A stretch of 64,000 nucleotides of DNA, taken from Verrucomicrobiota bacterium (GTDB lineage: Bacteria > Verrucomicrobiota > Verrucomicrobiia > Limisphaerales > JACQFS01). The position numbers were made by a program, and so were the translations under genes. The number at the start of each line of letters is the position of its first letter. Positions within the stretch are counted from its first letter, which is position 1. Under the pieces are notes generated by a model that did not search any database, was not told the origin of the DNA, and saw only the letters and a list, made by a program, of their open reading frames with translations. The stretch covers positions 18,785-82,784 of the forward strand of contig JACQFS010000018.1 in NCBI GenBank assembly GCA_016199935.1. Reading direction: 5' to 3'. Shown here piece after piece: positions 33,168 to 62,065 of this stretch.

Positions 33168-35414
33168 TCACGCGTCGAGCGACGCGCGCACCGCCCGCGC
33201 GAGCGCCTCGACCTGAAACGGTTTCTGCAAAAAGTTTTCCCCTTCCTTTAACTCGATGCCGTGCGCGGCGAGTTCGAGGCTGTAGCCGCTGCTGTAGATC
33301 ACCTTCAGCTCCGGCTTCTCCGCGGCGAGCTGTTTTCCGAGGTCCGCGCCGGACACACCCTCGGGCAGCGCAAAGTCGGTGAGCAACAGCGCGATCTCTC
33401 CGCGGTTGTCGGCCCAGATGACGCCGGCCTCCACGGCGTTGGCCGCCTCGAGCACGCGGTAGCCGTAGCGCTGGAGAATCGTGCGGGCCAGCGCGCGCAA
33501 CGCCGGCTCGTCCTCGACCACGAGGATCGTCTCGTGCCCGCCGCGCAGCGTCCCGATGGCCGACGGCAACCGGCGCGTGCCCTCGACGCTGCGGTCGCTC
33601 ACCGGCAGCATCACCTTGAACTCCGTGCCCCGGCCGACTTCGCTGCGGACCTCCACCCAGCCCTCGTGCTGGTTGACGATGCCGAACACCGTCGCGAGGC
33701 CGAGGCCCGTGCCCTTGCCGATTTCCTTCGTCGTGAAAAACGGCTCGAAGATTTTTTCCAAAATCTCCGCCGGGATGCCGGTGCCGGTGTCGGCCACGGT
33801 CAGCCGAACGAACCGTCCCGCGCGCGCCCCGGCGACCTTCGGCACGTTCGCGGCGGTGACTTCCTCGACGGCGGTGGTGAGCGTGAGCGTGCCGCCCCGG
33901 GGCATCGCGTCGCGAGCGTTGACGGCGAGATTCATGATCACCTGGTCCATCATGCCGGCGTCGGCGAAGACGGTCGGGAGTTTTTTCTCCGCGTTGAGCT
34001 CCAGCTTGATGTCCTCGCCGAGCACGCGCCCGATCATGCGCGCGACGCTCTCGACGACGTCGTTGAGGTTGAGGTTGGCGCGGGTGATGGCCTGCTTGCG
34101 GCTGAACATCAGGAGCTGGCGCGTGAGGTGGGCGGCGCGCTCGGTGGCGGCGCCGATCTGTTCGAGCGCCTCGCGCGTGCGCGCGTCCGGACTTTTCGTC
34201 GCGAGCAGTAGCGACGAGTAACCGCGGATGATCGTGAGCACGTTGTTGAAATCATGCGCGACGCCGGCGGAGAGGCGGCCGATGGATTCGAGCTTTTGCG
34301 ACTGCCGGAGCTGCGCCTCCAGCGTCACCTTCTCGGTGATGTCGCCCGCGTAGCAATGCACGCGGCGCAGCGTCAGCAGCGGATAGAACGACCACGAGAT
34401 GATGCGCCCGCCCATCTGCGACTCGCGGCGCAAGCGGCTGCGGCCGGAGGCGAGGCAGTCGCGGATGATCGCGGCCGCGTCGGACGGGAGCATCTCGACG
34501 GGATGTTTTTTGCCGAGCGCATCGGCGAGCCGCTGCGTCGCCTCGTTGAAATAATTCAGGTTGCCGTCCGCGGCGAACTCGAGCACCGGGTTGGGGTTGA
34601 GCTGCGCGAAGGCGGCGAGCTGGAGAATGGTGGCCTCCGCCTGCTTGCGCTCGGTGATGTTCATCATCGTGCCCACCATGCGCACGGCGCCGCCCGCGTC
34701 GTCGCGCACGATGTAGGCGCGGTCCTCGACCATCATGTAGAAACCATCGGCGCAGCGGAACAGATACTCGCCCCCCCACGTTGCGCCCGTGCCCTGGATC
34801 GCCTCCTCGAGACTGGCGACGAGCCGGTGGCGCTCCTCTGGATGAACATTTTCCACCCACCACTCCGGGTCCGGGCGCACCTGGTCGCGCGTGTAGCCGA
34901 AAAGCGTGGTGATGCCGTCGTTCCACTCGATGCGGTTGCCGCGGATGTCCCAGTCCCAGATCGCGTTGTTGGTCGCGCGCGCGACGAGTTGGAAGCGTTC
35001 CTCGTTGCTGCGGAGTTCCGCCTCCATCCGCCGCCGTTGCGTGAGGTGTTCGGCGCGGCGCTTCGCGATGGCGAGCCGCACGAGCAGCAACTCCTGCGTC
35101 ACCGGTTTGGGCAGATAATCATCCGCGCCGGCCTCGAGCACGTCGAGGTATTGGTCGGGCGAGTTGCCGCTCGTGACCACCACGATGATGCAGGCATCGC
35201 CCCCGGGCGCGGCGCGCAGGCGGCGGCACAACTCGAGCGCGTCCATGCCCGGCAGATACCAGTCGAGCACGACGACGGATGGCGATTCGCGCTGAAAAAT
35301 TTCCCACCCTTCAGCCGGCTGCGGCGTGGTGATGACTTCGAGGCCAAGTTCGCGGCCGATCTCGCGATAGCACGCGCGCACCGCCGGGTCGTGATGAACC
35401 AGCAGCGCCTTCAT
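33168..35414 (-). CDS. Hybrid sensor kinase (REC-PAS-PAS-HisKA-HATPase-REC)
   Basis: LDWYLPGMD, AHDFNNVL, NLAVNARDAM, DTGTG, GTGLGL, terminal receiver domain. Confidence 0.93.
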   Translation of the reverse strand: MKALLVHHDPAVRACYREIGRELGLEVITTPQPAEGWEIFQRESPSVVVLDWYLPGMDALELCRRLRAAPGGDACIIVVVTSGNSPDQYLDVLEAGADDYLPKPVTQELLLVRLAIAKRRAEHLTQRRRMEAELRSNEERFQLVARATNNAIWDWDIRGNRIEWNDGITTLFGYTRDQVRPDPEWWVENVHPEERHRLVASLEEAIQGTGATWGGEYLFRCADGFYMMVEDRAYIVRDDAGGAVRMVGTMMNITERKQAEATILQLAAFAQLNPNPVLEFAADGNLNYFNEATQRLADALGKKHPVEMLPSDAAAIIRDCLASGRSRLRRESQMGGRIISWSFYPLLTLRRVHCYAGDITEKVTLEAQLRQSQKLESIGRLSAGVAHDFNNVLTIIRGYSSLLLATKSPDARTREALEQIGAATERAAHLTRQLLMFSRKQAITRANLNLNDVVESVARMIGRVLGEDIKLELNAEKKLPTVFADAGMMDQVIMNLAVNARDAMPRGGTLTLTTAVEEVTAANVPKVAGARAGRFVRLTVADTGTGIPAEILEKIFEPFFTTKEIGKGTGLGLATVFGIVNQHEGWVEVRSEVGRGTEFKVMLPVSDRSVEGTRRLPSAIGTLRGGHETILVVEDEPALRALARTILQRYGYRVLEAANAVEAGVIWADNRGEIALLLTDFALPEGVSGADLGKQLAAEKPELKVIYSSGYSLELAAHGIELKEGENFLQKPFQVEALARAVRASLDA

Positions 35415-35469
35415 GCGGGCGCGGTCGGGCGGGGCGATGAAATGTCGGGCGGCATGGCGCGTGAAATCG

Positions 35470-35554
35470 TGGTGCGCGAGAGAGGACTTGAACCTCCAAC
35501 CCTTGCGGGACCGGATCCTAAGTCCGGCGCGTCTGCCAATTCCGCCACTCGCGC
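35470..35554 (-). tRNA. tRNA-Leu (anticodon TAG)
   Basis: GCGCGAG acceptor stem, long variable arm, GGTTCAAGTCC T-arm, encoded CCA; 85 nt. Confidence 0.96.
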
Positions 35555-35671
35555 GAACACCGCGCGCACCATTGCCGAATCGGGGCCGAACCTCAAGCTG
35601 GAACGCCGCGGCCGCGCGCGGCGCAAAAAGTTGGTGCTTGGAACTGCCGCCCCGTTTGCTACACCGCCCGG

Positions 35672-37690
35672 ATGAAATTCCGTTTGCTCTGCGCCCCGCT
35701 CCTGCTCGTCCTCACTTTCACGGCCGCCGCCGCCGACCCGAAGGACAACCAGATTGAAAATGTCCGCCGCGTTCCGCCGCTCGGCGTGAAGGTTTCCGAA
35801 AAGGACCGCGCCGAGCTGCAGGCCGGGCTCGCGTCGCTCGCGACGCAGATGCAGGTGCTGCGCGAGCAACTGCGCACGCAGCCCAAATTGCTGGAGCTGT
35901 TGCCCGACGTGGAGATTTTTCACAAGGCCGTGCGTGTGGCGCTGACCTACGACGAGTTTTCCAAATCCAATGAGATCGCCACGGCCAGGGCACTGCTCAA
36001 GACCGGCTACGAGCGCGCGCTCGCGTTGAAGCAGGGCAGGACGCCGTGGCTCACGACCAACGGGCTCGTCGTCCGCGGCTTCACGTCGAAGATCGACGGC
36101 TCGGTGCAGCCCTACGGCGTCGTGCTGCCCGAGGCGTGCCCAGGCTGCGCGCCGTTTCGTTTGGACATCTGGTTCCACGGGCGCGGCGAGACGTTGAGCG
36201 AATTGAATTTCATCGCGGGGCGGCAGAAGGATCCCGGCCAGTTCACGCCGGCCAAGACCATCGTGCTGCACGTTTACAACCGCTTCTGCAATCCCGCGCG
36301 GTTCGCGGGCGAGACGGATGTCTTCGAGGCGCTCGACCACGTGAAGAAATGGCAGCCGGTGGACGAGGACCGCATCCTCGTGCGCGGCTTCTCGATGGGC
36401 GGGGCGTCGTGCTGGGATTTCGCGACGCATCATGCGTGGCGTTGGGCCGCGGCGAATCCGGGTGCGGGCTTTTCCGAGACGGCGGACTTCCTGAAAGTTT
36501 TCCAAAGCGAGGACCTCAAGCCCCAGCCGTGGGAGCAGAAACTCTGGCGGCTCTACGACGCGACCGATTACGCGATCAACATCTTCAACGTCCCCACCGT
36601 CGCCTACAGCGGCGAGGACGACAAACAGAAGCAGGCCGCCGACATGATGGAAAAGGCGATGGCCGCCGAGGGTCTCAAGCTCACGCACATAATCGGGCCG
36701 AAGACTGGCCACAAATACGAGCCGAACGCCAAGAAGCAGGTCGAGGAACTCGTGGACGCCGCCGCCGCGAAGGGCCGCAATCCCGTGCCGACGCAGGTGA
36801 AGTTCACCACCTTCACGCTGCGCTACAACAAAATGGCGTGGGTGGAGGTGGACGGCTTGGAGGAACATTGGGAGCGCGGCCGCGTGGACGCCGAGTTGAA
36901 CAAGGATGGCAACTCGATCAAGGCCACGACCAAGGGCGTGACGGCGGTCACGTTCGCGTTCGATGCGGGCAAATATCCGCTCGATCCGAAGAAGCCGGCG
37001 ACCATCCTCATTGACGGCCAGAAACTCTCGGCCCCCGGCGCGACGGGCGCGTTCGCCGCGCACTTCCGCAAGGAGAATGGCAAATGGCAGGCGGTGCAGC
37101 TTCCCGCGTCCAGCAATCCCGGCCCCGCGCTCGCCAAGCGCCACGGTCTCCAAGGCCCGATTGACGACGCGTTCATGGACAGCTTCATGTTCGTGCGCCC
37201 GACGAGCGCCGCGTTGAATCCCAAGGTTGGCGCGTGGGTGCGCGGCGAGATGCAGCACGCCATCACGCATTGGCGCCAGCAGTTCCGCGGCGACGCGCGC
37301 GTGAAGGACGACTCCGTGGTGACCGATGCCGACATTGCCGCGCACAACCTCGTCCTCTGGGGCGACCCGCAGAGCAACAAGCTCCTCGCGCGCATCGCGG
37401 ACAAGCTGCCGGTCAAGTGGGGCGCGAACGGCCTCGTCGTCGCGGGCAAGACCTACGATGCGGGCAGCCACGTGCCGGTGCTCATCTACCCGAACCCGCT
37501 GAACCCGCGGCGCTACGTGGTGATCAACAGCAGCTTCACCTACCGCGAATACGACTACCTCAACAACGCGCGCCAGACGCCCAAGCTGCCCGACTGGGCG
37601 GTGGTGGACATCAGCAAGCCCGTGACCTCGCGCTTCCCCGGCGACATTGCCGCCGCGGGCTTCTTCGGGGAAAAGTGGGACGTGAAGTGA
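35672..37690 (+). CDS. Secreted alpha/beta-hydrolase (peptidase S9/esterase-like)
   Basis: Signal peptide, WFHGRG, GFSMGG nucleophile motif, TGHKY. Confidence 0.8.
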   Translation: MKFRLLCAPLLLVLTFTAAAADPKDNQIENVRRVPPLGVKVSEKDRAELQAGLASLATQMQVLREQLRTQPKLLELLPDVEIFHKAVRVALTYDEFSKSNEIATARALLKTGYERALALKQGRTPWLTTNGLVVRGFTSKIDGSVQPYGVVLPEACPGCAPFRLDIWFHGRGETLSELNFIAGRQKDPGQFTPAKTIVLHVYNRFCNPARFAGETDVFEALDHVKKWQPVDEDRILVRGFSMGGASCWDFATHHAWRWAAANPGAGFSETADFLKVFQSEDLKPQPWEQKLWRLYDATDYAINIFNVPTVAYSGEDDKQKQAADMMEKAMAAEGLKLTHIIGPKTGHKYEPNAKKQVEELVDAAAAKGRNPVPTQVKFTTFTLRYNKMAWVEVDGLEEHWERGRVDAELNKDGNSIKATTKGVTAVTFAFDAGKYPLDPKKPATILIDGQKLSAPGATGAFAAHFRKENGKWQAVQLPASSNPGPALAKRHGLQGPIDDAFMDSFMFVRPTSAALNPKVGAWVRGEMQHAITHWRQQFRGDARVKDDSVVTDADIAAHNLVLWGDPQSNKLLARIADKLPVKWGANGLVVAGKTYDAGSHVPVLIYPNPLNPRRYVVINSSFTYREYDYLNNARQTPKLPDWAVVDISKPVTSRFPGDIAAAGFFGEKWDVK

Positions 37691-37723
37691 GCGGCGTCGC
37701 GCTCGCTCGCTCATTCAGTCCGT

Positions 37724-38020
37724 TCAAAACTTCGGCTCTTCACGGGCGCCATGCCACACGTGGAGAATTTCCACGCCGCGCGTCTCCTCGCTCACGTCGT
37801 AGAAGATGCGGTAGGAGCGGAAGACAATCTCGCGCAGCGGCCCGCGCGTGCCGCGCGGATACGCGGGGCCGATCAATGGAAACGAGCCGAGAATGCGGAC
37901 GTGGGCGAGAATGCCGCGCCCCATGCGCAGGGCCGCCTCGGGATTGTCGCGGGCGATGTAGGCGCAAAGCTCTTGGAGATCCGTGAGCGCCGCCTCCGAC
38001 CAGATTACTTTGAAGTCCAT
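37724..38020 (-). CDS. RelE/ParE-family toxin
   Basis: VIWSEAALTDL, FPLIG, YRIFY, EILHVWHGAR. Confidence 0.88.
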   Translation of the reverse strand: MDFKVIWSEAALTDLQELCAYIARDNPEAALRMGRGILAHVRILGSFPLIGPAYPRGTRGPLREIVFRSYRIFYDVSEETRGVEILHVWHGAREEPKF

Positions 38021-38202
38021 GCCGTGGCCCACGACTCGACGAGCTGTTCGGCCTCTTCATGGGTCTTGGTGCGCCCGGCGGCGACATCGGCGCGACCGCG
38101 GCGGACGGCGGCCATGATGTGCAACTCCGCAGTGATCTCTTCGAGGGAGGCTTGCTCCGGGAGCCGGCCCAGCGCGTCCAACACGGCTTGCTTGTCTGTC
38201 AT
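38005..38202 (-). CDS. Cognate antitoxin (65 aa)
   Basis: MTDKQAVLDALGRLPEQASLEEI...RRGRADVAAGRTKTHEE; overlaps the toxin start. Confidence 0.85.
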   Translation of the reverse strand: MTDKQAVLDALGRLPEQASLEEITAELHIMAAVRRGRADVAAGRTKTHEEAEQLVESWATAWTSK

Positions 38203-38279
38203 GCGTTCACGTTTACCCCTGCGCGGGCGGAAGGGCAAGCGGTGCGTGGCCCCCGGCGACCTCGCCGCCTGTCCGGGGT

Positions 38280-38552
38280 TCAGTGATCCTGCACTTCGTA
38301 GGACTTGACCAGGCCGCCCACCAGCTTCACGCGGAACTGGCTGGTGCGCCCCCACGGCCGCCGGATGGTGTAGCCCAACACTTCCGTGATGTCGTCGGGC
38401 AGGACGGTTTGGGGTTTGCCGAGCTTCTTGACGACTTCCTCCCGCGTCATGCCGACGGAAATCTTCGCGGGTTCGGCCGGGCAGATGTGCCCCGGCAGCC
38501 GGCAGCCGGCCAAAAGCAAAACGAGCGACAGCAGCAATAACGTTGGTTTCAT
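38280..38552 (-). CDS. Small lipoprotein, SmpA/BamE-like
   Basis: LLAGC lipobox; ISVGMTREEVVKKLGKP. Confidence 0.8.
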   Translation of the reverse strand: MKPTLLLLSLVLLLAGCRLPGHICPAEPAKISVGMTREEVVKKLGKPQTVLPDDITEVLGYTIRRPWGRTSQFRVKLVGGLVKSYEVQDH

Positions 38553-38644
38553 CAAATCAAGGGGGTTGTGGGTGCGCGCGGCGGGTGATGGTGGCTGAAT
38601 CGATTGGGCCGCCAAAGTTGACGCGTTTGATTGCGGCGGGCGGC

Positions 38645-38673
38645 ACGCTATTCGAGTGCGGAATTTTTGTCCA
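38645..38673 (-). promoter_or_regulatory. Sigma70-like promoter TGGACA-N17-TAGCGT
   Basis: Same geometry recurs at 39240-39268 and 61556-61584. Confidence 0.6.
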
Positions 38674-38760
38674 CCCTGCGCCGGCGCGGGCTTCTTCGGG
38701 GAAAAGTGGGAAGTGAAGTAAGCTCGCGTGTTGGCTCTCGCGACTGGTTGGGTTTTCTTC

Positions 38761-39180
38761 CTAGTGATAGAGTGATCGCGGATCCTTAAGCCGGTCGAGA
38801 AATCCAAGAAAATCTGCACCAAGCTTGACGGCAGAACTGTAGTCAAAACCTATGTCTGCAACCAAAACAACCGAAGGCGGATCAGTGCGGTAATCCAAAC
38901 TGTAGGTATCGCCTCCGCCTGTGCTCCCGAAAAAAAGAAAGGCCGGATAATACTCTTGAACGTGATTCGCACGATTGTAAGCAACGATCTCATCGGCACT
39001 CCAAAGTTGAAGCTCGTGGTCACCAATGACACCGGTCATGCCATCAGACTCGGTGAGGATTTGACCTAGCTCTTCCGGCAGCTTCCGCCCGAAAGTTTCT
39101 TCGATCTTCGCAATGGCTCCCGGTGAAGCACCGTGAGTGCCTTTGAACCCCTCCAGCCGCGCTACAAGTGCTTCGTCCAT
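38761..39180 (-). CDS. SMI1/KNR4-family immunity-like protein
   Basis: ASPGAIAKIEETFGRKLPEE, SDG, FFGSTGGGDTYSLD; AT-richer. Confidence 0.85.
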   Translation of the reverse strand: MDEALVARLEGFKGTHGASPGAIAKIEETFGRKLPEELGQILTESDGMTGVIGDHELQLWSADEIVAYNRANHVQEYYPAFLFFGSTGGGDTYSLDYRTDPPSVVLVADIGFDYSSAVKLGADFLGFLDRLKDPRSLYH

Positions 39181-39239
39181 TTCTTATTGCCAAAAAGACA
39201 TTGGGCCTTTGATTTGACGCCTTTGATTACGCTGGTGGC

Positions 39240-39268
39240 ACTCTATTTGGACGGGGTGCTTTTGTCCA
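39240..39268 (-). promoter_or_regulatory. Sigma70-like promoter TGGACA-N17-TAGAGT
   Basis: Lies within an ~80-bp block similar to 38603-38682. Confidence 0.6.
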
Positions 39269-39347
39269 CACCGCGCCACCGCTCGGCAAACCCGCGGCCG
39301 TCCTCCCTCGCGGCGCGCTGAGAGCAGCGCGCCCGGAACCGGCCGAT

Positions 39348-39840
39348 CGTTCCGAAGAACGGTGATCCCTTTCCTTGGAACCGCCTCCCCGTTCCGCGGA
39401 ACGGCGGCCCGTTCCCGGTGTTTTCGCCAAAAACCGCGTGTTTCTCCGGCGGAAGCCCGCCAACGGCCGCGCCGTTCCCGCCGACGGCGGGACGGTTGGC
39501 ACCGCCGGCCAATGTTGGAGCCAACGGCGAAAAAGTTGGCGTGAACGGCGGAAAAATCCCCGCCGACGGCGAAACGGTTGGTGCCGCCGGCCGGCCGGTT
39601 GGCTCCAATGGCGGGACCGTTCACGCCGAACAGTCCGGCGGTTGGAGGGAACGGTTAAAATGTTGGAGCCAACGGCGCGACGGTTGGCGGGAACGGCGAA
39701 ATGGTCGGCCCCAACGCCCGGACGGTTGGAGCCAACGGCGAAAAAGTTGGCGTGAACCGCGAAAAAATCCCCGCCAACGGCGAAACGGTTGGGGCCGTCG
39801 GCGCGGCCGTCGGCGGGAACGGCGGAAGCGTCGGCGCGGC
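39348..39840. repeat. Degenerate 21-bp tandem repeat array
   Basis: Units such as GTTGGAGCCAACGGCGAAAAA; near-exact 3-unit duplication at 39514 and 39725; one 22-nt unit. Confidence 0.85.
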
Positions 39841-39882
39841 TTTTTTGCCCATTCCGGGGCTCCGGCAGCCCAACCCGCGTCA

Positions 39883-39984
39883 TGGACTGCGCCGGCAGAG
39901 CGCAGCGGCGACGGCGCTTTCACCCAAGCCAACGCCTATCCGACATCGAAAGCGGCGTCGTGCTTCGCTTGCCGCCGCAGTCCA
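39883..39984. repeat. REP-like palindrome
   Basis: TGGACTGCGCCGGCAGAGCGCAGCGGCGACGGCGCTTTC ... GAAAGCGGCGTCGTGCTTCGCTTGCCGCCGCAGTCCA, imperfect IR. Confidence 0.8.
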
Positions 39985-39991
39985 AAACACC

Positions 39992-41116
39992 TCACGCCAC
40001 CGGCGTGTGCTGGAACTTGCGCACGCGGCCGTAGGGCACCCATTCCAGCACGTAGAGGTCACCGCGCGAATCCACGCACAGCGCGTGCGGCGTGGTGAAC
40101 TTGTCCTTCGCGCCGTGCTCGAACTGCTCCTTCGGCGTCCCGCGCCCGTCGCCGAGGCGCGCGACCGGCTGGTCATTCTTGTCGAGGATGACGACGAGGC
40201 TGCCGAGGTCGGGCACGTAGAGATGATCCTTGTGCTGGTAGAAGCAGCACGGGTTGCGCACGAAGTCACCGCTGATGGTGCGGACGTAATTCAGTTCGAG
40301 GTCATAGACTTCGTAACGCCCGTTCGCGCGGTCGGCGATGTAAACCTCGGGCGTCTTCCTGAGCGTGTTGACCCAGACGCCGTGGCAGGTGTTGAAGAGG
40401 CCGTGCTCGGCGTCCGGCCCCTTCTTCGTGCTGCGCCCGCCGATGGTCTTGAGGTGTTTGAAATTTTTGTCGAACCGGCTGACGATCTGGCTGCCGTAGC
40501 CGTCCACGATGTAGATGTCGCCATTGGGCGCGACGGCGACGTCGGTGGGATTGGTCCAGGTGAACTTCTGCGAGGTGGAGGATTCCTTGTCCACGTTGCC
40601 GATGGTGTAGAGCACCTTGCCCTTGAGGTCGGTCTTGTAAACGCGCTTGCCGAGATTTTTCTCCGGGCCACCGACGTTCTCGGTGAAGTAGAGGAATTCG
40701 TTGCGGCCCTCCTTGCTCCAGTAAATGCAGTGGGCCGTGGCCATCACCTGCTCGGGCGTGTAGCCGACCTTGTCGCCGAAATCCTTGCTCCACGTTTCCA
40801 GCAGCTTGCCCTCGCGGCTGAACACGGCCACGCACGGGCTGATCGAGCGTGAGGTGACGTAAATGCGGTCCTTGGAGTCCACGACGATGCCGCAGCCGAG
40901 CCCGTAGCTCATGCCGGTGGGTAATTTGCCCCAGCCTTCGTCGAGCGTGTAGGTGAACTTGCCGCTGCCGATGCGGACCGGCTCCGGTTTGAGCGTGAGT
41001 GGATCGGCGGCGTGGGCCACCGAACCCGCGCTGGCAGCGGCTGCGGCGGTGGCGGTGGTGGCGAGGAAATCGCGGCGGGTGAGGCGTTTGGGGAAGAGGT
41101 ATTGCGTGGTGTTCAT
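39992..41116 (-). CDS. Tat-exported NHL-repeat beta-propeller protein
   Basis: TRRDFL Tat motif; PTDVAVAPNGDIYIVDGYG, TPHALCVD. Confidence 0.88.
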   Translation of the reverse strand: MNTTQYLFPKRLTRRDFLATTATAAAAASAGSVAHAADPLTLKPEPVRIGSGKFTYTLDEGWGKLPTGMSYGLGCGIVVDSKDRIYVTSRSISPCVAVFSREGKLLETWSKDFGDKVGYTPEQVMATAHCIYWSKEGRNEFLYFTENVGGPEKNLGKRVYKTDLKGKVLYTIGNVDKESSTSQKFTWTNPTDVAVAPNGDIYIVDGYGSQIVSRFDKNFKHLKTIGGRSTKKGPDAEHGLFNTCHGVWVNTLRKTPEVYIADRANGRYEVYDLELNYVRTISGDFVRNPCCFYQHKDHLYVPDLGSLVVILDKNDQPVARLGDGRGTPKEQFEHGAKDKFTTPHALCVDSRGDLYVLEWVPYGRVRKFQHTPVA

Positions 41117-41360
41117 GGTGACGATGAGTCTGGGATTTGCGTCGAGCGTAGCAAATCCGGGCGCGGCGTGAATGGAGGATTCTCGCAACGCCGATGGAGA
41201 AAAAAAGTGCGGTCAAGTCGGTCCATGAATCGTCCGTGAGACACATCGCTGTTTTGCGAAAACCATTCTGATTTAAGTGCATCTATGCGCGTGACACGGG
41301 CAGGCCTCTTTACGTTAAATGTCGGGGATCGTCTGAAAGACGCGATTGGGCAAGAACCCG

Positions 41361-44300
41361 ATGTATTGGATTCGAATCATTTGTCTGCTCCTGGCGACGG
41401 GAGCTTGGCTGGTGCCTGCGCACAGTCAGGCTGCCGGCGCGCCGCCGTCGGTCGCGCTGACCAGCCCGCTGCACGGCGCCTACGCGGTCGCGCCGGCGAC
41501 GGTGCGTTTCACCGCGACCGCGTCGGACTCGGACGGCTCGGTGACGAACGTGGAATTTTATTCCGGCACGAACAAACTCGCGAGCGTCACCAACGCGCCC
41601 TACCAGTTCGCGTGGACCGGGGTCGCCGCCGGGAGCTACAGCCTCACCGCCGTCGCGCGGGACAACAGCGGACTGGCGACGACCTCCGCGGTGGCGAGCA
41701 TCACGGTGCTGACGAACGGCTCGGCGATCAAGGTGATGCCGCTGGGTGACTCGATCACCGAGGGCGGTGGATTTTCCAGTCCGTATCCGGGCGCGTATCG
41801 CGTGCGGCTGTGGGCGGACCTCGCGGCGGCGGGACTCAACGTGGATTTCGTCGGCTCGGGGAGCAACGGCCCCGCCGAACTCGGCGACAAGGATCACGAG
41901 GGACACTCGGGATGGTTGATCGGGCCGGACGTGCCGGTGAATCAGAACGGCCTCTACAACAGCCTCGGCACCTGGCTCAGCAACGCGCAGCCGCACGTGG
42001 TGCTGTTGCTCATCGGCGCGAACGACGTGATTCAGAATTACGATTTCGCCAACGCGCCCACGCGCCTCGCCAACCTCATTGACCGCATCCACGCCGTCTC
42101 GTCGAACACGCACGTGATCGTCTCGAGTCTCACGCCGTTCCGCGACACGGATCTCTACAACCGCTCGAAGTCGCTCAACGCGCAGATGCCCGGCATCGTC
42201 GCGGCGCGGCAGGCGGCGGGCAAACGCATCTCGTTCGTGGACGGCACGGAGGCGATGACGCGCTTCGACCTGACGGACGGCATCCATCCGACGACGAACG
42301 GCTATTCGCAACTCGGGGATTTCTGGTTCGGTGCGCTGCTGCCCGTGATCACGTGCTCGGCCCCGCCGGAGGTGACGCTGACCGCGCCGACCAACGGTGC
42401 CACCTTCACCGCGCCCGCGAACCTCACGCTGACGGCGGCGGCCACGAACTTCGGCGGCTTGATTCAGCGCGTGGAGTTTTATCAGGACGATCTGAAAATC
42501 GGCGAGGCGACCAACGCGCCCTGGTCGCTCACCGTCAACGGCGTGACCTCGGGACGGTTCCGCTTTTCCGCGCGCGCCGTGGCCACCAACGGCGCGGCGT
42601 CCTCGAGCGCGACCAGCACGGTGCAGGACCAGTGGCAGTTCATCCGCGGCATCAACATCAACGGCGGCGCCGTCACCATCGAGGGCTACGACTGGCTGGA
42701 CTACTCGAGCGCGACGAGCCTTGGCTTTGGTTTCACCAGCGCCGTCACGCTCTCGTCGCCGAACGATTACGGCTTCACGCTGAACCCGCTGCCTTACGAT
42801 CCGAATCTCCTGACGATGTTCCAGCGGCTGGCCTATCAGCCGAACTCGAGCCAGCCGCTGAGCTTTGCGCAGTCGCTGAACAACGGCAGCTATCGCGTCT
42901 ATCTCTGGCTGCTCGAGGATTTCGGCGACTACTCGCGCACGCTCGACTTCAAGGTGCAGGGCACGACGGTGGCCACCAACGTCTTCAACGTCCCGAAGGG
43001 CACGTGGCAAAAGTTCGGCCCCTACGTCGCGATCGTGACCAACGGGCAGTTGACGGCGGACCTGCAACGCAACTCCAGCGGCGGGCCGGCGATTTTCGGC
43101 GTGACCATTTTCAAGGCCGACTCCACCAACACGCCGCCGATTCTCTCCACGCTCACCAACCTGACCATTTACCAGAACAGCTCCACCGGGCCGCTGCCGA
43201 TTTACGTGACGGATGACTACACCGCCGCGAGCAACCTCGTCCTCTCCGCCACTTCCTCCAACACCACGCTGGTGCCGACCAACCTCATCGTCCTCGGCGG
43301 CTCCGGTTTCAGCCGCACGCTCACCGTCACGCCGGCCACCAATATCGGCGGCACTTCCCTCATCACCGTGACGGCGACCGATGGCGGCGGCCTGACCAAC
43401 AGCACGAGCTTCACGCTCACCGTCATCGGGAACACGGTGCCCACCGCCAGCAACCAAACCGTCACCGCCAGCGAGGACGTCGCCAAGGCCATCACGCTGA
43501 CCGGCTCCGATGCCGAGTCGCCCACGCTGACCTACTTCCTCGTGCGCGGGCCGACCAACGGCACGCTCTCCGGTTTCAACACGAACACCGGCGCGCTCAC
43601 GTATCTGGGCAATTCCAACTTCTTCGGCGCCGACAGTTTCCTGTTCAACGTGTTTGACAGCCAGCTCACCAGCCCTGTGCCCGGCACCGTCACGATCACG
43701 GTCACGAACGTGAATGACGCGCCGGTGGCGAGCAACCAGAGCGTGACCTTGCCCGAGGACGTGGCGACGAACCTGGTGCTGCGCGGTTTCGACGTGGAGG
43801 GCAGCAACCTGACGTTCACCGTCGTCAACCTGCCGACCAACGGAGCGCTCAGCGTGTTCAACACCAACACGGGCGCGCTGACTTACCGGCCGGTGACGAA
43901 CTATTTCGGCTCGGACAGCTTCACGTTCAGCGTGAGCGACGGGCAGCTCACGAGTGCGGTGGCGACCGTGTCGCTGACGATCACGCCGGTGAACGATGCG
44001 CCAGTGGCGAGCAACCAAAGCGTGACACTGCCCGAGGACACAGCGACGAACCTCACCCTCGCCGGCTTCGACGTGGAGGGTAGCAACCTCACCTTCGCCG
44101 TGGTCGTCGGGCCGGCGCACGGCGCGCTCAGCGGCTTCGATACGAATGCCGGCACGCTCACCTACCTGCCGGTGTCCAACTATTTTGGCGCGGACAGTTT
44201 CACGTTCAGCGTGAGCGACGGGCAGTCGACGAGCGCGGTGGCGACGGTGTCGCTGACGATCACGGCGGTGAACGACGCACCGGTGGCGAGCAACCAGAGC

Positions 44301-47300
44301 GTGACGCTGCCCGAGGACACGGCGACGAACCTCACGCTCGCCGGCTTCGACGTGGAGGGCAGCAACCTCACGTTCACCGTGGTCAACCCGCCGACGAACG
44401 GCACGCTCAGCGCGTTCAACACCAACACGGGCGCGCTGACTTACCGTCCGGTGACGAATTATTTTGGAACAGACAGCTTCACTTTCAGCGTGAGCGACGG
44501 GCAGTTGACGAGCGCGGTGGCGACGGCGTCGCTGACGATCACTCCCGTGAACGATGCGCCGGTGGCGAGCAACCAGAGCGTGACGCTGCCCGAGGACACG
44601 GCGACAAACCTCGTGCTGCGCGGCTTCGACGTGGAGGGCAGCAATCTTACTTTCACCGTGGTCAGTCAGCCGACCAACGGCGCGCTCAGCGCGTTCAACA
44701 CGAATGCCGGCACACTCACCTACCTGCCGGTCACGAACTTCTTTGGGGCGGACAGCTTCACCTTCAGCGTGAGCGATGGGCAGTTGACGAGCGCGGTGGC
44801 GACGGTGTCGCTCACGATCACGGCGGTGAACGACGCGCCGGTGGCGAGCAACCAGAGCGTGACGCTGCCCGAGGACACGGCGACGAACCTCGTGCTGCGC
44901 GGCGGCGATGTGGAGGGCAGCAACCTCACCTTCACCGTCGTCAGCCCGCCGGGCAACGGCACGCTCAGCGCGTTCAACACGAACACCGGCGCGCTCACCT
45001 ACCTTCCAGTTACGAATTATTTCGGCGCAGACAGTTTCACGTTCAGCGTGAGCGACGGGCAGTTGACGAGTGCGGTGGCGACGGTGTCGCTCACGATCAC
45101 GGCGGTGAACGACGCGCCGGTGGCGAGCAACCAGAGCGTGACGTTGCCCGAGGACACGGCCACGAACCTCACGCTCACCGGCTTCGACGTGGATGGACCC
45201 GTTACCAATTTCACTATCGCCACGCTGCCGGCGCACGGCACGCTTTCCGGCACGGCGCCCAACGTCACCTACACTCCGGCGACCAACTACAACGGCCCGG
45301 ACGCCTTCACCTTCACGGTGGACGACGGCGCGCTCACTTCCGCGGTGGCGACGGTCAGCCTCACGGTCACGCCGGTGAACGACGCGCCGACCGCCTTCAG
45401 CCAGAGCCTGACGAACGCGGAAGACACGTCGCTGGCGATCACGCTCACGGCGTTCGACGTGGACGGGCCGGTGACAAATTTCGTGATCGCGACTCCGCCG
45501 GCGCACGGCGCGTTGAGCGGCACCGCGCCGAACCTCAGCTATCTTCCCGCGACGAACTACAACGGCCCGGACAGCTTCACCTTCACGGTCAACGACGGGT
45601 CGCTCACCTCCGCGGTGGCGACGGTCAGCCTCACGATCACGCCGGTGAACGACGCGCCGGTGGCGTTCGCCCAGAGCCAGACGCTCGCCGAGGACACCGG
45701 CCTCGCGCTCACGCTCACGGGCGCGGATGTGGACTCGACGAACCTTACGTTCGCGATCGTGACGGGGCCGACCAATGGCGTGCTGCTGAACTTCAACGCG
45801 ACGAACGGCGCGGTCACCTACCTGCCCAACACGAATTTCTTCGGCGCGGATGCGTTCACGTTCAGCGTGAGCGACGGGGCGCTGACGAGCGCGGCGGCGA
45901 CGGTGACGCTGACGATCACGAATGTGAACGATGCGCCGGTGGCCTTCGCGCAGAGCCGCACGCTCGCCGAGGACACGGCGCTCGCGCTCACACTCACGGG
46001 CGCGGACGTTGACTCGACCAACCTCACCTTCGTCATCGTGACGGCCCCGACGAACGGCGTGCTGCTCGCCTTCGACGCGACGAACGGCACGGCGACCTAT
46101 CTGCCCAATACGAATTTCTTCGGTCCGGACTCGTTCACGTTCAGCGCGAGCGATGGCGCGCTGACGAGTTCGCCCGCGACGGTGACGCTGACGATCACGA
46201 ATGTGAACGACGCACCCGTGGCCTTCGCGCAGAGCCGCACGCTCGCCGAGGACACCAGCCTCGCGCTCACGCTCACGGCCGCGGACGTGGACTCGACCAA
46301 CTTGATTTTCATCCTCGTCTCGTCGCCGACGAACGGCGGGTTGAGCGCGTTCAACGCGACCAACGGCACCGTCACCTACCTGCCGGTCACGAACTTCCAT
46401 GGCCCGGACTCGTTCACCTTCAGCGTCAGCGACGGCGCACTGACCAGCGCCGTGGCCGTGGTCACGCTCAACGTCACCAACGTGAACGACACGCCCGTCG
46501 CCTTCGCGCAGAGCCAGACCCTCGCCGAGGACACGAGCCTCGCGCTCACGCTCACGGGCGCGGACGTGGACTCGCCGGTGCTCACCTTCATCATTGTGAC
46601 CGGGCCGACCAACGGCGTGCTCCAGGATTTCAGCCCGGACGACGGCACGGTGACATATCTGCCGAACACGAACTTCTTCGGCGCGGACGCGTTCACGTTC
46701 AGCGTGAGCGACGGGGCGCTGACGAGCGCGGCGGCGACGGTGACGCTGACGGTCACGAATGTGAACGATGCGCCCGTCGCCTTCAGCCAGTCGCTGACAA
46801 ATGCCGAGGACGCCGCGTGGCCGATCACGCTCACGGGCCTCGACGTGGACGGGCCGCTCACGAACTTCACCGTCGTGGACGTGCCGACCAATGGCGTGCT
46901 GCGCGTGCTCGACACGAACGGCGCGGTGCTGTTCACCGTGACCAACGGCATGAGTCTCGGCGCGACGAACGCGTTGAGCTACCTCCCCGCGACGAACTTC
47001 TTTGGCGAAGACGCGTTCACGTTCACCGTGGATGACGGCGCGCTCACCTCGGAGGTCGCGACGGTTTCGCTGACGATCACGAACGTGAACGACGCGCCGG
47101 TCGCGTTCGCACAAAGCCAGACGCTGGCCGAGGACACGCCGACGCCGCTCACGCTCGCGGGCACGGACATTGACTCGCCGAACCTCACATTCCTCATCGT
47201 CGCCGGTCCGACCAACGGCGCGCTGCTGAATTTCAACGCGACGAACGGCACGGTGACGTATCGGCCGAACACGAACTTCTTCGGCAGCGACGCATTCACC

Positions 47301-49202
47301 TTCGCGGTGAGCGATGGCGCGCTGACGAGCGCGGCGGCGGTGGTTTCGCTGACGATCACGAACGTGAACGACGCGCCGGTCGCGTTCGCGCAGAGCCAGA
47401 TCCTGGCCGAGGACACGAGTCTCGTGCTCACCCTCGCGGGCGCGGATGTGGACTCGACCAACCTGACGTTCGTGCTGGTGACCGGCCCCACGAACGGCGC
47501 GCTCACCGGCTTCAACGCCACGAACGGGACGGTGACCTACATGCCGGCCACGAACTTTTTCGGCGCGGACGCCTTCACGTTCAGCGTGAGCGACGGCGCG
47601 TTGACGAGCGCGGTGGCGGTGGTTTCGCTGACCATCACCAACGTCAACGACGCGCCCGTGGCGTTTGCCCAGAGCCAGACGCTGGCGGAGGACACGAGCA
47701 TCGCACTCACGCTCGCGGGAGCGGACATTGACTCGTCCAACCTCACCTATCTCGTCGTCACCGGGCCGACCAACGGAACGCTGGCGGGCTTCAACGCCAC
47801 GAACGGGACGTTGACCTACCGGCCGAACACGAATTTCTTCGGCGCGGATTCCTTCACGTTCAGCGTGAGCGATGGCGCACTGACCAGTGCCGCGGCGGTG
47901 GTTTCACTCACCATCACGAACGTGAACGACGCGCCTGTCGCGCAGGCGCAAAGCGTGACCGTGGGCGAGGACACGCCGGCGGCGATCACGCTCGTCGGGA
48001 CGGATGTGGACTCGACGAACCTCACGTTCATCCTGCTCCGCGGCCCGACCAACGGCACGCTCACGAGCTTCAACACCAACACCGGCGCGGCGACGTATCT
48101 GGGCGGCACGAACTTCTTCGGCGCGGACAGTTTCGTGTTCAACGTCTCCGACGGCCAGCTTACTGGCGCGGTGCCGGCCACCGTCTCGATCACGGTCACG
48201 AACATCAATGACCCGCCCGTCGCGAACAGCCAGAGCGCCGGCCTCCTCGAGGACACGAGCCTCGCGCTCACGCTCACCGGCTCGGACATTGACTCGACCA
48301 ACCTCACGTTCCTCATCGTCACGCCGCCGGCGCACGGCGTGCTCTCGGCGTTCAACGCGACGAACGGCCATGTGACCTACACGCCGGCGACGAATTATTT
48401 TGGCGCGGACGCGTTCACCTTCGCGGTGAGCGATGGCTCGCTGACGAGTGCGGCGGCGACGGTCTCGCTCACCATCACGAACGTCAACGACCCGCCCGTG
48501 GCCGGCAATCTCTCGCTCTCCGTCCCGGCGAACACCAACTCCACGCGCACGCTCGCCGCGACTGATCCGGACGGCGACGCGCTCACGTTCGCGCTCACGT
48601 CGGCGCCGACCAACGGGCTGCTCACGGCGTTCAACGCGACGAACGGCGCGTTCACCTACACGCCGGCACACGCCTTCGCCGGCAAGGACGCGTTCACCTT
48701 CACCGTGAGCGACGGCGTGCTCACCGCCACCGGCGCAGTGCAACTCACCGTCGTGGCGCAGACGGACGCGAACACCAACGGCATCCCCGACGCGTGGGAG
48801 GACGCCTACTTCGGCGGCCGGCTCGCGCCCGAGGATCCGGACGCCGATCCGGACGGCGACGGCTTCACCAACTTGCAGGAATACCTCGCCGACACGAATC
48901 CGCGCGACCCGCGTTCGGCGCTCGCGATCACCGCCGTGCAGCCCGGCGCGACCAACAACACCTTCGTCGTCACGTGGAGCGCGATGGGTGGCGTGCGCTA
49001 CCGCCTGCGCTTCAGCAACGGCGACACCAACGGCGCCTACACCGGCTCCTTCACGTCCGTGCCGCGCGGCATCGCGGAGGAAATGTGCCCCGCGCCGATC
49101 GGCACCGCGACCAACCTGACCTTCCTCGACGACGGCTCGCTCACCGGCCCGACAACGGTGCCGGGCCTCCGCTACTTCCGCATCGAGGCGGTAAAGGAAT
49201 AA
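41361..49202 (+). CDS. Giant surface protein: Ig-like, SGNH esterase, Ig-like, lectin-like, 19 cadherin/tandem-95 Ig repeats, Asp-rich motif, C-terminal domain
   Basis: Signal peptide; GDSITEG...DGIHP; 19 NDAPVA-type units counted by eye (~43430-48760); DPDGDGFTNLQEY; ends RYFRIEAVKE. Confidence 0.93.
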   Translation: MYWIRIICLLLATGAWLVPAHSQAAGAPPSVALTSPLHGAYAVAPATVRFTATASDSDGSVTNVEFYSGTNKLASVTNAPYQFAWTGVAAGSYSLTAVARDNSGLATTSAVASITVLTNGSAIKVMPLGDSITEGGGFSSPYPGAYRVRLWADLAAAGLNVDFVGSGSNGPAELGDKDHEGHSGWLIGPDVPVNQNGLYNSLGTWLSNAQPHVVLLLIGANDVIQNYDFANAPTRLANLIDRIHAVSSNTHVIVSSLTPFRDTDLYNRSKSLNAQMPGIVAARQAAGKRISFVDGTEAMTRFDLTDGIHPTTNGYSQLGDFWFGALLPVITCSAPPEVTLTAPTNGATFTAPANLTLTAAATNFGGLIQRVEFYQDDLKIGEATNAPWSLTVNGVTSGRFRFSARAVATNGAASSSATSTVQDQWQFIRGININGGAVTIEGYDWLDYSSATSLGFGFTSAVTLSSPNDYGFTLNPLPYDPNLLTMFQRLAYQPNSSQPLSFAQSLNNGSYRVYLWLLEDFGDYSRTLDFKVQGTTVATNVFNVPKGTWQKFGPYVAIVTNGQLTADLQRNSSGGPAIFGVTIFKADSTNTPPILSTLTNLTIYQNSSTGPLPIYVTDDYTAASNLVLSATSSNTTLVPTNLIVLGGSGFSRTLTVTPATNIGGTSLITVTATDGGGLTNSTSFTLTVIGNTVPTASNQTVTASEDVAKAITLTGSDAESPTLTYFLVRGPTNGTLSGFNTNTGALTYLGNSNFFGADSFLFNVFDSQLTSPVPGTVTITVTNVNDAPVASNQSVTLPEDVATNLVLRGFDVEGSNLTFTVVNLPTNGALSVFNTNTGALTYRPVTNYFGSDSFTFSVSDGQLTSAVATVSLTITPVNDAPVASNQSVTLPEDTATNLTLAGFDVEGSNLTFAVVVGPAHGALSGFDTNAGTLTYLPVSNYFGADSFTFSVSDGQSTSAVATVSLTITAVNDAPVASNQSVTLPEDTATNLTLAGFDVEGSNLTFTVVNPPTNGTLSAFNTNTGALTYRPVTNYFGTDSFTFSVSDGQLTSAVATASLTITPVNDAPVASNQSVTLPEDTATNLVLRGFDVEGSNLTFTVVSQPTNGALSAFNTNAGTLTYLPVTNFFGADSFTFSVSDGQLTSAVATVSLTITAVNDAPVASNQSVTLPEDTATNLVLRGGDVEGSNLTFTVVSPPGNGTLSAFNTNTGALTYLPVTNYFGADSFTFSVSDGQLTSAVATVSLTITAVNDAPVASNQSVTLPEDTATNLTLTGFDVDGPVTNFTIATLPAHGTLSGTAPNVTYTPATNYNGPDAFTFTVDDGALTSAVATVSLTVTPVNDAPTAFSQSLTNAEDTSLAITLTAFDVDGPVTNFVIATPPAHGALSGTAPNLSYLPATNYNGPDSFTFTVNDGSLTSAVATVSLTITPVNDAPVAFAQSQTLAEDTGLALTLTGADVDSTNLTFAIVTGPTNGVLLNFNATNGAVTYLPNTNFFGADAFTFSVSDGALTSAAATVTLTITNVNDAPVAFAQSRTLAEDTALALTLTGADVDSTNLTFVIVTAPTNGVLLAFDATNGTATYLPNTNFFGPDSFTFSASDGALTSSPATVTLTITNVNDAPVAFAQSRTLAEDTSLALTLTAADVDSTNLIFILVSSPTNGGLSAFNATNGTVTYLPVTNFHGPDSFTFSVSDGALTSAVAVVTLNVTNVNDTPVAFAQSQTLAEDTSLALTLTGADVDSPVLTFIIVTGPTNGVLQDFSPDDGTVTYLPNTNFFGADAFTFSVSDGALTSAAATVTLTVTNVNDAPVAFSQSLTNAEDAAWPITLTGLDVDGPLTNFTVVDVPTNGVLRVLDTNGAVLFTVTNGMSLGATNALSYLPATNFFGEDAFTFTVDDGALTSEVATVSLTITNVNDAPVAFAQSQTLAEDTPTPLTLAGTDIDSPNLTFLIVAGPTNGALLNFNATNGTVTYRPNTNFFGSDAFTFAVSDGALTSAAAVVSLTITNVNDAPVAFAQSQILAEDTSLVLTLAGADVDSTNLTFVLVTGPTNGALTGFNATNGTVTYMPATNFFGADAFTFSVSDGALTSAVAVVSLTITNVNDAPVAFAQSQTLAEDTSIALTLAGADIDSSNLTYLVVTGPTNGTLAGFNATNGTLTYRPNTNFFGADSFTFSVSDGALTSAAAVVSLTITNVNDAPVAQAQSVTVGEDTPAAITLVGTDVDSTNLTFILLRGPTNGTLTSFNTNTGAATYLGGTNFFGADSFVFNVSDGQLTGAVPATVSITVTNINDPPVANSQSAGLLEDTSLALTLTGSDIDSTNLTFLIVTPPAHGVLSAFNATNGHVTYTPATNYFGADAFTFAVSDGSLTSAAATVSLTITNVNDPPVAGNLSLSVPANTNSTRTLAATDPDGDALTFALTSAPTNGLLTAFNATNGAFTYTPAHAFAGKDAFTFTVSDGVLTATGAVQLTVVAQTDANTNGIPDAWEDAYFGGRLAPEDPDADPDGDGFTNLQEYLADTNPRDPRSALAITAVQPGATNNTFVVTWSAMGGVRYRLRFSNGDTNGAYTGSFTSVPRGIAEEMCPAPIGTATNLTFLDDGSLTGPTTVPGLRYFRIEAVKE

Positions 49203-61447: not shown

Positions 61448-61526
61448 GGCGCGGTGTCCTCACCGCGCCGCGGGCGATCCGAGCGCGACAGGTTTTCGCG
61501 GCGCGCTGAGGACAGTGCGCCCTACC
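61443..61526. repeat. REP-like palindrome overlapping the batE stop
   Basis: IR 61443-61472 / 61497-61526, 27/30; right arm repeated directly at 62028-62061. Confidence 0.88.
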
Positions 61527-61555
61527 GCAAATGGTTTGTGCGAACCGAAAGCCGA

Positions 61556-61584
61556 TGGACACGTGTGGCTGCCATGCCTAGTCT
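61556..61584 (+). promoter_or_regulatory. Sigma70-like promoter TGGACA-N17-TAGTCT
   Basis: Upstream of the 61643 cargo gene. Confidence 0.55.
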
Positions 61585-61642
61585 GCGAACGTCAATAATG
61601 GATTGGGCGGTGATTTTGCTGCCGACTAAAATGCTAGGCTTC

Positions 61643-61972
61643 ATGAAGCGTGCGCAGAAATTCCTCATCGCTCTGTTGGCGCTTGTGATTCTACTCGCGC
61701 TCTTCGGACGGCCGCCATCAGCGTGGAAGCGGGTGCGCGTTGGCATGACATGGGAGGAGACAAACGCCATCATCAATCAGAGGGGTGTGATCACCGAGTC
61801 ACGCGTGGTAGCGTCAACCGACGGGCAGGAGCACACCGCCCGCACCTTTTTTTGTTACAAGGAGTTCATCGTCTTCCCGCTGTGGGTTTTCCGCGTTGAT
61901 CTGTTGGACACACGCGTTGCGAGCACACGGATCGGACTAAGGGTTGGGGACATTGAGAAGATTTCGCCATGA
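61643..61972 (+). CDS. Small membrane-anchored protein, SmpA/BamE-like motif
   Basis: MKRAQKFLIALLALVILLALFG anchor; VRVGMTWEE; AT-richer; start uncertain. Confidence 0.65.
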   Translation: MKRAQKFLIALLALVILLALFGRPPSAWKRVRVGMTWEETNAIINQRGVITESRVVASTDGQEHTARTFFCYKEFIVFPLWVFRVDLLDTRVASTRIGLRVGDIEKISP

Positions 61973-62065
61973 TCGAATCATGGAGCGAGGTTGCATCACA
62001 CCCTGGACGCTCCAAGGGCGTCCGGTCTTTTCGCGGCGCGCTGAGGACAGCGCGCCCTACCTGAC

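Follow-up and report, generated by a model that had tools for sequence, protein, structure and literature searches.

Two promoter-leader blocks in a Verrucomicrobiota genome are probably decayed, integrase-less integron Pc-attI heads

A minus-strand island of small genes in a Verrucomicrobiota bacterium (order Limisphaerales; GenBank assembly GCA_016199935.1, contig JACQFS010000018.1, here C256) raises the question of why two unrelated genes, one for a small lipoprotein and one for an SMI1/KNR4 protein, should each follow a similar promoter-leader block. The blocks, termed A (before the lipoprotein gene) and B (before SMI1/KNR4), lie in the 64,000-nt stretch analyzed here, referred to as the window, which belongs to a metagenome-assembled genome (MAG) of 5.03 Mb in 260 contigs with 64% GC and 4% contamination. 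The original prediction proposed a cassette system in which each immunity-like gene carries a standard expression head, possibly also a recombination site. The similarity itself is real. Local alignment of the regions upstream of the two genes gives a score of 48, with approximately 75% identity over a 65-nt core, which lies above all controls: 1000 shuffles scored 16.9 ± 2.2 (maximum 29) and 3000 random genomic 220-mers scored 18.9 ± 2.8 (maximum 32). Both blocks are located on the minus strand as foreseen, and the predicted promoter TGGACA-N17-TAG(C/A)GT is present in each, that of B being the sole sigma-70-like site found by the scanner within positions 37600-40100. The hexamers agree at 11 of 12 positions and the 17-nt spacer at 9 of 17, and high identity resumes in the first ~25 nt past the -10 element, in the leader (AATCAAAnGCGTCAA, GGCCCAAT). 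Scanning of the 5.03-Mb assembly, with an nhmmer profile of both blocks as originally suggested and with blastn-short, returned these two copies and no third; with two copies only, the block is not a dispersed repeat of the repetitive extragenic palindrome (REP) or miniature inverted-repeat transposable element type. Two other motifs were considered and set aside: GGCAC-N5-TT on the plus strand as a possible sigma-54 site, which is unconserved in relatives and oriented away from the genes, and a LexA-type palindrome, GAACA-N4-TGTTC, at the -10 element of one relative, which is not conserved.

Homologues in other genomes indicate what the blocks are. A sequence-only model of A and B gave two weak matches, in separate other families of the order, each immediately before the start codon of an unrelated gene. 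A second model of four sequences detected full-length copies in about ten genomes out of 300, each with one or two, and these too precede unrelated small genes. In the consensus of these blocks, 17-18 nt separate TCTSGACAA from a -10 element, and ~11 nt separate the latter from CCGTAATTAAAGGCGTCAAATGGGACGCCCAATACnTGTTAGGC, which the gene follows. Approximately 30 nt upstream of the -35 element, on the opposite strand, the relatives' loci contain a divergent start codon with the first 7-37 codons of a reading frame (MEPRKAAFERVLPNPKAKLLGQVREMCRF). Pfam and NCBIfam gave no match for the upstream peptides of 37-44 aa, which are too short; a six-frame search identified the MEPRKAAFERVLPNPKAKLLGQVREMCRF peptide as the N-terminus of full-length integron integrases (IntI), tyrosine recombinases of 350-390 aa. 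The present genome encodes an IntI on contig C237 (TIGR02249, 420.9 bits against a cut-off of 265). Stubs of intI of 28-37 codons were found at two relatives' loci (L015, L019) and on contig C5 of the present genome, while a full-length intI adjoins block homologues at two others (L055, L039). A later profile of nine blocks, including A and B, matched directly upstream of full-length, divergent intI genes in two genomes (G180, E = 8.5e-7; G009, E = 1.3e-4). At the other end, the relatives' blocks terminate in GTTAGGC or GTTAGCC, corresponding to the integron core GTTRRRY, and the cassettes that follow are closed by canonical attC sites of 93-108 nt (L017, 2587-2679; L019, 2090-2197).

Given the intI stub upstream, the core and attC cassettes downstream, and the position beside intact intI in relatives, A and B are identified by sequence comparison as homologues of the intI-proximal Pc promoter and attI region of integrons common in this order. 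The identification was examined with a profile built solely from other genomes and scanned over the whole of the present genome in a 10-Mb search space. The best match was a head of a second sequence family (E = 7e-4), followed by B (E = 0.0022), two other heads at 0.027 each and, in fifth place, A (0.04), with more heads below; the true attI of C237 was a sub-threshold match only (E = 1.2). Overall, we assign a probability of roughly 0.8 to A and B being degenerate copies, without an integrase, of this order's integron platform region. That this genome holds only two adjacent copies would suit a chance similarity or the simple local duplication of an ordinary promoter, but the alignment z-score exceeds 10, and homologues occur in at least 10 genomes of other families, where they invariably precede unrelated genes and adjoin intI or a stub of it, so that the probability of this explanation is negligible.

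The anatomy of an intact head was established from loci in the order that retain an integrase. IntI was present in 76 of 201 sampled genomes, and 29 intI-linked upstream regions were examined. Starting from the divergent intI start codon, a sigma-70-type promoter (TCTGGACAA, 17 nt, -10 element) directed toward the cassettes, i.e., Pc, follows after ~25-30 nt; next come the box (A/T)TAGGCnGCAA, a short covarying hairpin, AATACCT and the crossover core GTTAGGC of attI. A sigma-70-like promoter facing the cassettes was found at 15 of the 29 loci and in the reverse direction at two, compared with 1.1 in shuffles (maximum 4 of 300), and a GTTRRRY-type core, usually after AATAnCT, lies 90-160 nt from intI at 23. 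For these 23 loci with a recognizable core, the 38 nt preceding it fold with a mean z of -1.44 (t = -4.1), against +0.24 for a control inside the cassette. The underlying 5-pair helix was observed in an alignment of 35 sequences (A5, columns 23-27 paired with 49-53), where compensatory changes occur at all five pairs, 81.7% of cells are paired compared with 27-44% in slid registers, and none of 500 shuffles reaches the covariation score. Five different stem sequences are represented, with variants including GGCGTC/GACGCC, GACCGC/GCGGTC, GGCCGC/GCGGCC and GCGGCA/TGCCGC. The hairpin, of 5-6 bp, ends ~10 nt before the GTT crossover; to our knowledge, canonical attI sites have not been described as structured. 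Furthermore, at 12 of 22 loci with a GTTAG core an ATG-initiated mini open reading frame (mini-ORF) stops exactly at the TAG within the core, against 2.7 ± 1.6 in shuffles (0 of 500). It spans the attI hairpin and mostly has 14 codons, both at intI-linked loci (L036-L065) and on contigs C161, C5 and C236 of the present genome. The box (A/T)TAGGCnGCAA is a direct-orientation repeat of the core, recalling the direct repeat sites of attI1.

Compared with this layout, both window copies are eroded. Neither retains the GTT of GTTRRRY, the core reading TTTTTGG(C) in B and ATTCAGC(C) in A, and the mini-ORF is absent from both. In block B the promoter survives together with the box (AAAGGCGTCAA) and GGCCCAAT, and the hairpin is broken; A, whose box reads AAACGCGTCAA, is more decayed. 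No significant fold of A or B was obtained on either strand relative to shuffles (z from -1.13 to +0.84), and a riboswitch or structured-leader interpretation of the two blocks was rejected on this ground. A related proposal, that the blocks are a lineage-specific cis-regulatory leader, an operator or structured 5' untranslated region unrelated to integrons, draws on the observation that A and B are most alike over the ~25 nt that open the predicted transcript (AATCAAAnGCGTCAA), a possible binding site. Against this, the conserved box is the counterpart of the GATAGGCTGCAA box in intI-linked attI sites, only two copies exist in the genome, no Rfam family matched at E <= 5 in a scan of 37500-40500, and the fold z-scores of -1.1 to +0.8 are unremarkable; a leader of this kind is very unlikely. 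Returning to the interpretation of A and B as decayed heads, the original idea of an expression head combined with a past or present recombination site is borne out by homology, the blocks corresponding to Pc together with attI. The cores in the window are mutated, and a present recombination role of A and B appears unlikely for this reason. From the decayed cores, hairpin and mini-ORF and the lack of an intI remnant, it follows that each block most likely acts now only as a constitutive sigma-70-type promoter with a 5' leader of 50-80 nt for the downstream gene or genes.

The gene behind block B supplies separate evidence for an integron. SMI1/KNR4 has a GC content of 0.52, compared with 0.64 for the genome, and its homologues at 65-73% identity sit in metagenomic arrays of small co-oriented genes with attC sites between them. 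The junction before its start codon, TTTGGC-AATAAGAA-ATG, aligns with TTGGGC-GAAGAAAG-ATG of homologous cassettes (...CGTTGGGC-GAAGAAAG-ATG). Beginning 7 nt past its stop codon, 29 nt (ACCCAACCAGTCGCGAGAGCCAACACGCG) agree at 26 positions with the beginning of an attC preserved in full (91 nt) behind the SMI1 homologue of locus L081; the site is truncated in the window where a copy of the 3' end of the neighboring hydrolase gene begins. On these comparisons SMI1/KNR4 is assigned as a true integron cassette, and the cassette system of the original prediction is borne out, with homologues in attC-delimited arrays and the start of the attC kept. Distant homologues inside the order (29-34% identity) had no heads or attC nearby and are uninformative. 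The L081 array, which contains the closest SMI1 homologue on a long contig (ENA ERZ27268082 k141_1678905, locus 4376-5799), has transposase genes of IS3 type (rve) and IS110 type at its end. The remnant also bears on whether A and B might be attC rather than attI sites. Their position between co-oriented small genes, and the central inverted repeat and 3' GTTAGGC of the relatives' blocks, would be in keeping with attC; nevertheless, the 3' core lacks an inverse-core partner (RYYYAAC), A and B have no significant fold, the real attC of this genome is a different 93-nt sequence (GCCTAACCATGCGCTG...GGGTCGTTAGGC), the attC remnant of SMI1 is separate and lies between SMI1 and block A, and homologous blocks abut intI. 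We regard an attC identity as extremely improbable. The genes behind block A, namely the lipoprotein gene and a ParD-like/ParE pair, are less informative: no homologue of the lipoprotein was found among 5.8 billion proteins, and the immunity-like label is not borne out for either the lipoprotein or ParDE.

The two heads in tandem could suggest that each gene carries its own, as originally proposed. This is not the arrangement of the system, since intact relatives and other arrays of this genome possess one head at the start of the array, followed by attC-separated cassettes. Instead, the adjacency of A and B reflects a rearrangement marked by a duplication of the 3' end of the hydrolase gene. 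The last 39 nt of this plus-strand gene, which converges on the island, occur at its native end (direct repeat DR1) and as an orphan copy (DR2) that meets the truncated SMI1 attC on one side and abuts block A at its upstream edge on the other. DR1 and DR2 are identical at 37 of 39 positions, no third copy of their 24-mer core exists in the genome, and hydrolases of relatives end in the same motif, AAGFFGE(K/R)W. The repeats bracket a segment of ~1 kb comprising ParE, ParD, the lipoprotein gene and block A. IntI recombination leaves no duplications of this kind; the tandem layout is therefore not a per-cassette design. Since the 39-nt repeats are 95% identical and the heads only ~75%, the heads diverged before the duplication event, and in-situ tandem duplication of one head is unlikely. 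An empty site at the hydrolase locus was not revealed by the relatives examined, which are too distant (<= 69% identity).

These observations allow a history to be proposed. The SMI1/KNR4 cassette would have entered at B through attI x attC recombination mediated by IntI. Loss of the integrase gene and mutation of the cores (B to TTTTTGG, A to ATTCAGC) would have come later, with decay of the hairpin and mini-ORF and truncation of the SMI1 attC. The second remnant, consisting of head A, the orphan lipoprotein gene and parDE, would then have been placed between SMI1 and the hydrolase gene together with the 39-nt duplication. In the simplest reading, two decayed-integron versions abutted the hydrolase 3' end, one with ParDE, the lipoprotein gene and A and the other with SMI1 and B, and illegitimate or homology-assisted recombination may have joined them, duplicating the end of the hydrolase gene.

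Several points weigh against this interpretation. As both blocks have lost the GTT of the core, their identity as attI depends on homology of the upstream 70 nt, which in the exclusion test is significant for B and borderline for A. No intI or remnant of it was found upstream of A or B, nor was one detectable anywhere in the window. No attC is recognizable beside the lipoprotein gene or ParDE, so that they count as putative cassettes only. Finally, the 39-nt duplication is not a product of IntI recombination, so that part of the layout needs a second event.

Further heads occur in the genome, beginning with a third site in the window. The original prediction noted the same promoter geometry before the gene at 61643, and the site (TGGACA-N17-TAGTCT) is real and related in architecture. 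The bare geometry, TGGACA-N16-18-TA[GA]NNT, is not rare, with 18 genome matches against ~17 expected from composition; the link of the third site to A and B lies in a common architecture and in homology to attI regions, and the hexamers alone do not establish it. It belongs to sister family 2, of which the genome contains seven copies; the parts follow in the same order, namely -35 element, 17 nt, TAGTCT, hairpin and AAATG(C/T)TAGGC. The relatives-only profile of family 1 also matches family-2 copies, the intI-linked attI of genome G009 bears the family-2 hairpin, and, as weak evidence, two family-2 copies (C127, C157) have a short upstream match to the first intI codons (TTTGCCGCCTTTGCC). A third family is found on C5, C161 and C236, with C5 retaining an intI stub of 28 codons; single sites lie on C17, C119 and C200, and model R3 adds matches on C172 and C79. 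In total, ~16 Pc-attI heads in three sequence families (on contigs C5, C17, C109, C119, C127, C157, C161, C162, C188, C200, C236, C247 and C256) stand against one intI (C237:9743-10801). With R3, other genomes also have more sites than integrases (G016, 5 vs. 1; G039, 4 vs. 0). These counts are indicative only: the assembly is a MAG, and part of the training of R3 was on sites of this genome. A palindrome of REP type whose head is GTAG/CTAC (GGCGCGCTGAGGACAGCGCGCCCTAC), different in sequence from the A/B block, has 41 genome copies, in the window at 39307-39333, 61500-61525 and 62035-62060, and lies 30-40 nt upstream of the -35 element in three different heads, at the place expected for intI. 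The 34-nt direct repeats around the 61643 gene, considered as a target-site duplication, were rejected, being two copies of this REP.

The excess of heads over integrases may indicate orphan attI sites serviced in trans, or a graveyard. On the first alternative, the heads would still be working attI sites on which the single IntI of C237 acts in trans, forming a distributed integron with A and B as members. Ten sites with an intact hairpin and core at E <= 0.01 (R3), including the intI-linked attI of C237 and integrase-less sites on C161, C236 and C5, speak for it, as do the canonical 93-nt attC of the cassettes behind two integrase-less heads (F3_C236, F3_C5), the mini-ORF kept, by eye, in F3_C161 and F3_C5 (ATG) and F3_C236 (GTG), and the surplus of sites here and in the other genomes. 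However, A and B, without GTT and with hairpin and mini-ORF lost, are poor candidates for recombination, and the partial training of R3 on the genome's own sites and the 260-contig, 4%-contaminated MAG reduce the weight of the counts. This version is improbable. A related reading, in which the integron of this order is a distributed system with one IntI (or none in cis) serving many orphan Pc-attI heads, and A and B are dead members, is put forward tentatively, although we consider it doubtful. If true, each head would be a combined expression and docking module (promoter, hairpin, mini-ORF, GTTAGGC) with one to few cassettes, and integrase-less single cassettes elsewhere, whether SALIN (single attC sites lacking integron integrases) or undetected sites, may often begin with such heads.

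The coordinates are listed in Table 1. On the minus strand, the order is the NHL-repeat gene, 21-nt tandem repeats with a REP-like palindrome, block B, SMI1/KNR4, block A, the lipoprotein gene and ParD-like/ParE. The tandem repeats (GGCGAAACGGTTGGnGCCnCC and variants, 39440-39850) separate block B from the NHL-repeat gene, and are crossed by a 218-codon minus-strand open reading frame (ORF) with a 7-residue repeat (FAVGGN-like) that terminates within block B. Farther out, 41346-49202 (plus strand) holds a 2618-aa ORF with ~19 tandem repeats of 93 residues (279 nt), and a 767-codon open frame antisense to the hydrolase gene (35411-37714, minus strand), with no family match, is almost certainly a GC-rich shadow ORF.

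Table 1. Features of the island and of the third site, in window coordinates.
Feature	Position	Strand	Remark
NHL-repeat gene	39995-41188	minus
Block B, probable decayed integron Pc-attI head	39189-39285 (aligned part 39200-39277)	minus	matched by the profile from other genomes, E = 0.0022
B promoter TGGACA-N17-TAGAGT	39268-39240	minus	-35 TGGACA 39263-39268; -10 TAGAGT 39240-39245
B predicted transcription start	near 39233	minus
B box AATCAAAGGCGTCAAA	39213-39229	minus	counterpart of GATAGGCTGCAA in intI-linked attI sites
B L-box-like GGCCCAAT	39200-39207	minus
B mutated core and cassette junction GTCTT/TTTGGC	39189-39199	minus	GTT to TTT
SMI1/KNR4 (SUKH-1) gene	38761-39180	minus	integron cassette ORF; Pfam PF09346, E = 7e-12
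5' half of SMI1 attC, R'' ACCCAAC, then CAGTCGCGAGAGCCAACACGCG	38722-38753	minus	match to L081 attC
DR2, orphan copy of last 39 nt of hydrolase gene	38685-38723	plus	encodes GFFGEKWEVK-stop
Block A, probable decayed integron Pc-attI head	38593-38682 (aligned part 38603-38682)	minus
A promoter TGGACA-N17-TAGCGT	38673-38645	minus	-35 TGGACA 38668-38673; -10 TAGCGT 38645-38650
A predicted transcription start	near 38638	minus
A box AATCAAACGCGTCAAC	38618-38632	minus
A GGCCCAAT	38603-38610	minus
A mutated core CGATTCAGCC	38593-38602	minus
Small lipoprotein gene	38283-38552	minus	signal peptide with lipobox LAGC; weak BamE-like match
ParD-like antitoxin gene	38006-38203	minus	overlaps ParE
ParE toxin gene	37724-38020	minus	Pfam PF05016, E = 4e-17
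DR1, native 3' end of hydrolase gene	37654-37692	plus
Peptidase_S9/DLH-type hydrolase gene	35672-37690	plus
Third head, sister family 2	61535-61648	plus
Third-head promoter TGGACA-N17-TAGTCT	61556-61584	plus	-35 TGGACA 61556-61561; -10 TAGTCT 61579-61584
Third-head hairpin GGCGGTGATTTTGCTGCC	61606-61623	plus
Third-head core remnant GCTAGGC	61633-61639	plus
Membrane-anchored SmpA-like gene	61643-61972		cargo of third head

Comparison with known systems places these heads within integron biology. Like the intI1-attI1 region (5' conserved segment) of class 1 integrons, which comprises Pc, attI1 with its own DR1/DR2 and L/R boxes, and ORF-11, the relatives' blocks lie between a divergent intI and the first cassette, with a promoter directed outward, and possess repeated core-like boxes (ATAGGC ... 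GTTAGGC) and a GTTRRRY crossover core. They differ in having no detectable sequence similarity to attI1, in locating Pc in the intergenic spacer and not inside intI, and in the covarying 5-6-bp hairpin ~10 nt before the core; we know of no covarying hairpin of this kind in attI1. The window copies depart further from the class 1 region, being without intI, core, hairpin and mini-ORF. The mini-ORF of intact sites resembles ORF-11 of class 1 attI1, a short ORF whose stop is the TAG of the core and which, through coupling, enhances translation of the first cassette (PMC8876359). A usable attI/Pc consensus for an environmental phylum, comprising promoter, box, covarying hairpin, core and ORF-11-like mini-ORF, is thereby provided. 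Because attI sites are "not known for most integrons" (PMC4889954), current tools are blind to integrase-less heads. No paper using the terms "orphan attI" or "solo attI" was found in the literature, so the anatomy of attI across the order and the surplus of heads relative to integrases appear to be undescribed, as extensions of known biology.

The window elements also resemble degenerate chromosomal integrons, SALIN and CALIN (attC site clusters without an integron integrase), in which chromosomal cassettes occur without a neighboring functional integrase and for which intI loss is one proposed origin (Cury et al. 2016, PMC4889954; IntegronFinder 2.0, PMC9024848). Those elements are defined by attC, whereas here half an attC remains and the recognizable survivor is the attI/Pc head; IntegronFinder-type tools would report nothing at this locus for that reason. 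Xanthomonas integrons with inactivated intI, reportedly described by Gillings et al. in 2005, are another case of degenerate chromosomal integrons. The order B-SMI1-A, a gene flanked on both sides by attI-derived sequence, is reminiscent of delta-attI-type cassettes and attI1-gene-attI1 architectures (PMC12901181). The latter are IntI1-active sites in clinical class 1 and 2 integrons, while in the window a hydrolase fragment and a truncated attC separate SMI1 from head A and the cores are dead, indicating that the tandem arose by a rearrangement not catalyzed by IntI. ParDE in a cassette-type island downstream of a Pc-attI head likewise corresponds to the toxin-antitoxin cassettes of sedentary chromosomal integrons, where such pairs are typical content (PMC13108822), except that no attC is recognizable beside the parDE of the window. 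The locus further suggests that Pc can outlast the decay of recombination as the promoter of domesticated cassettes, one route to stable expression of foreign genes. Judged formally, the A/B element has no intI, as an integron would, none of the complete attC sites sought with strict cores and paired inverse core throughout the window and a single truncated one where CALIN have at least two without intI nearby, and no core, as a live attI would. The most fitting description is that of a fossil belonging to a known kind, and no new mechanism is called for, since the finding is explained by a known system.

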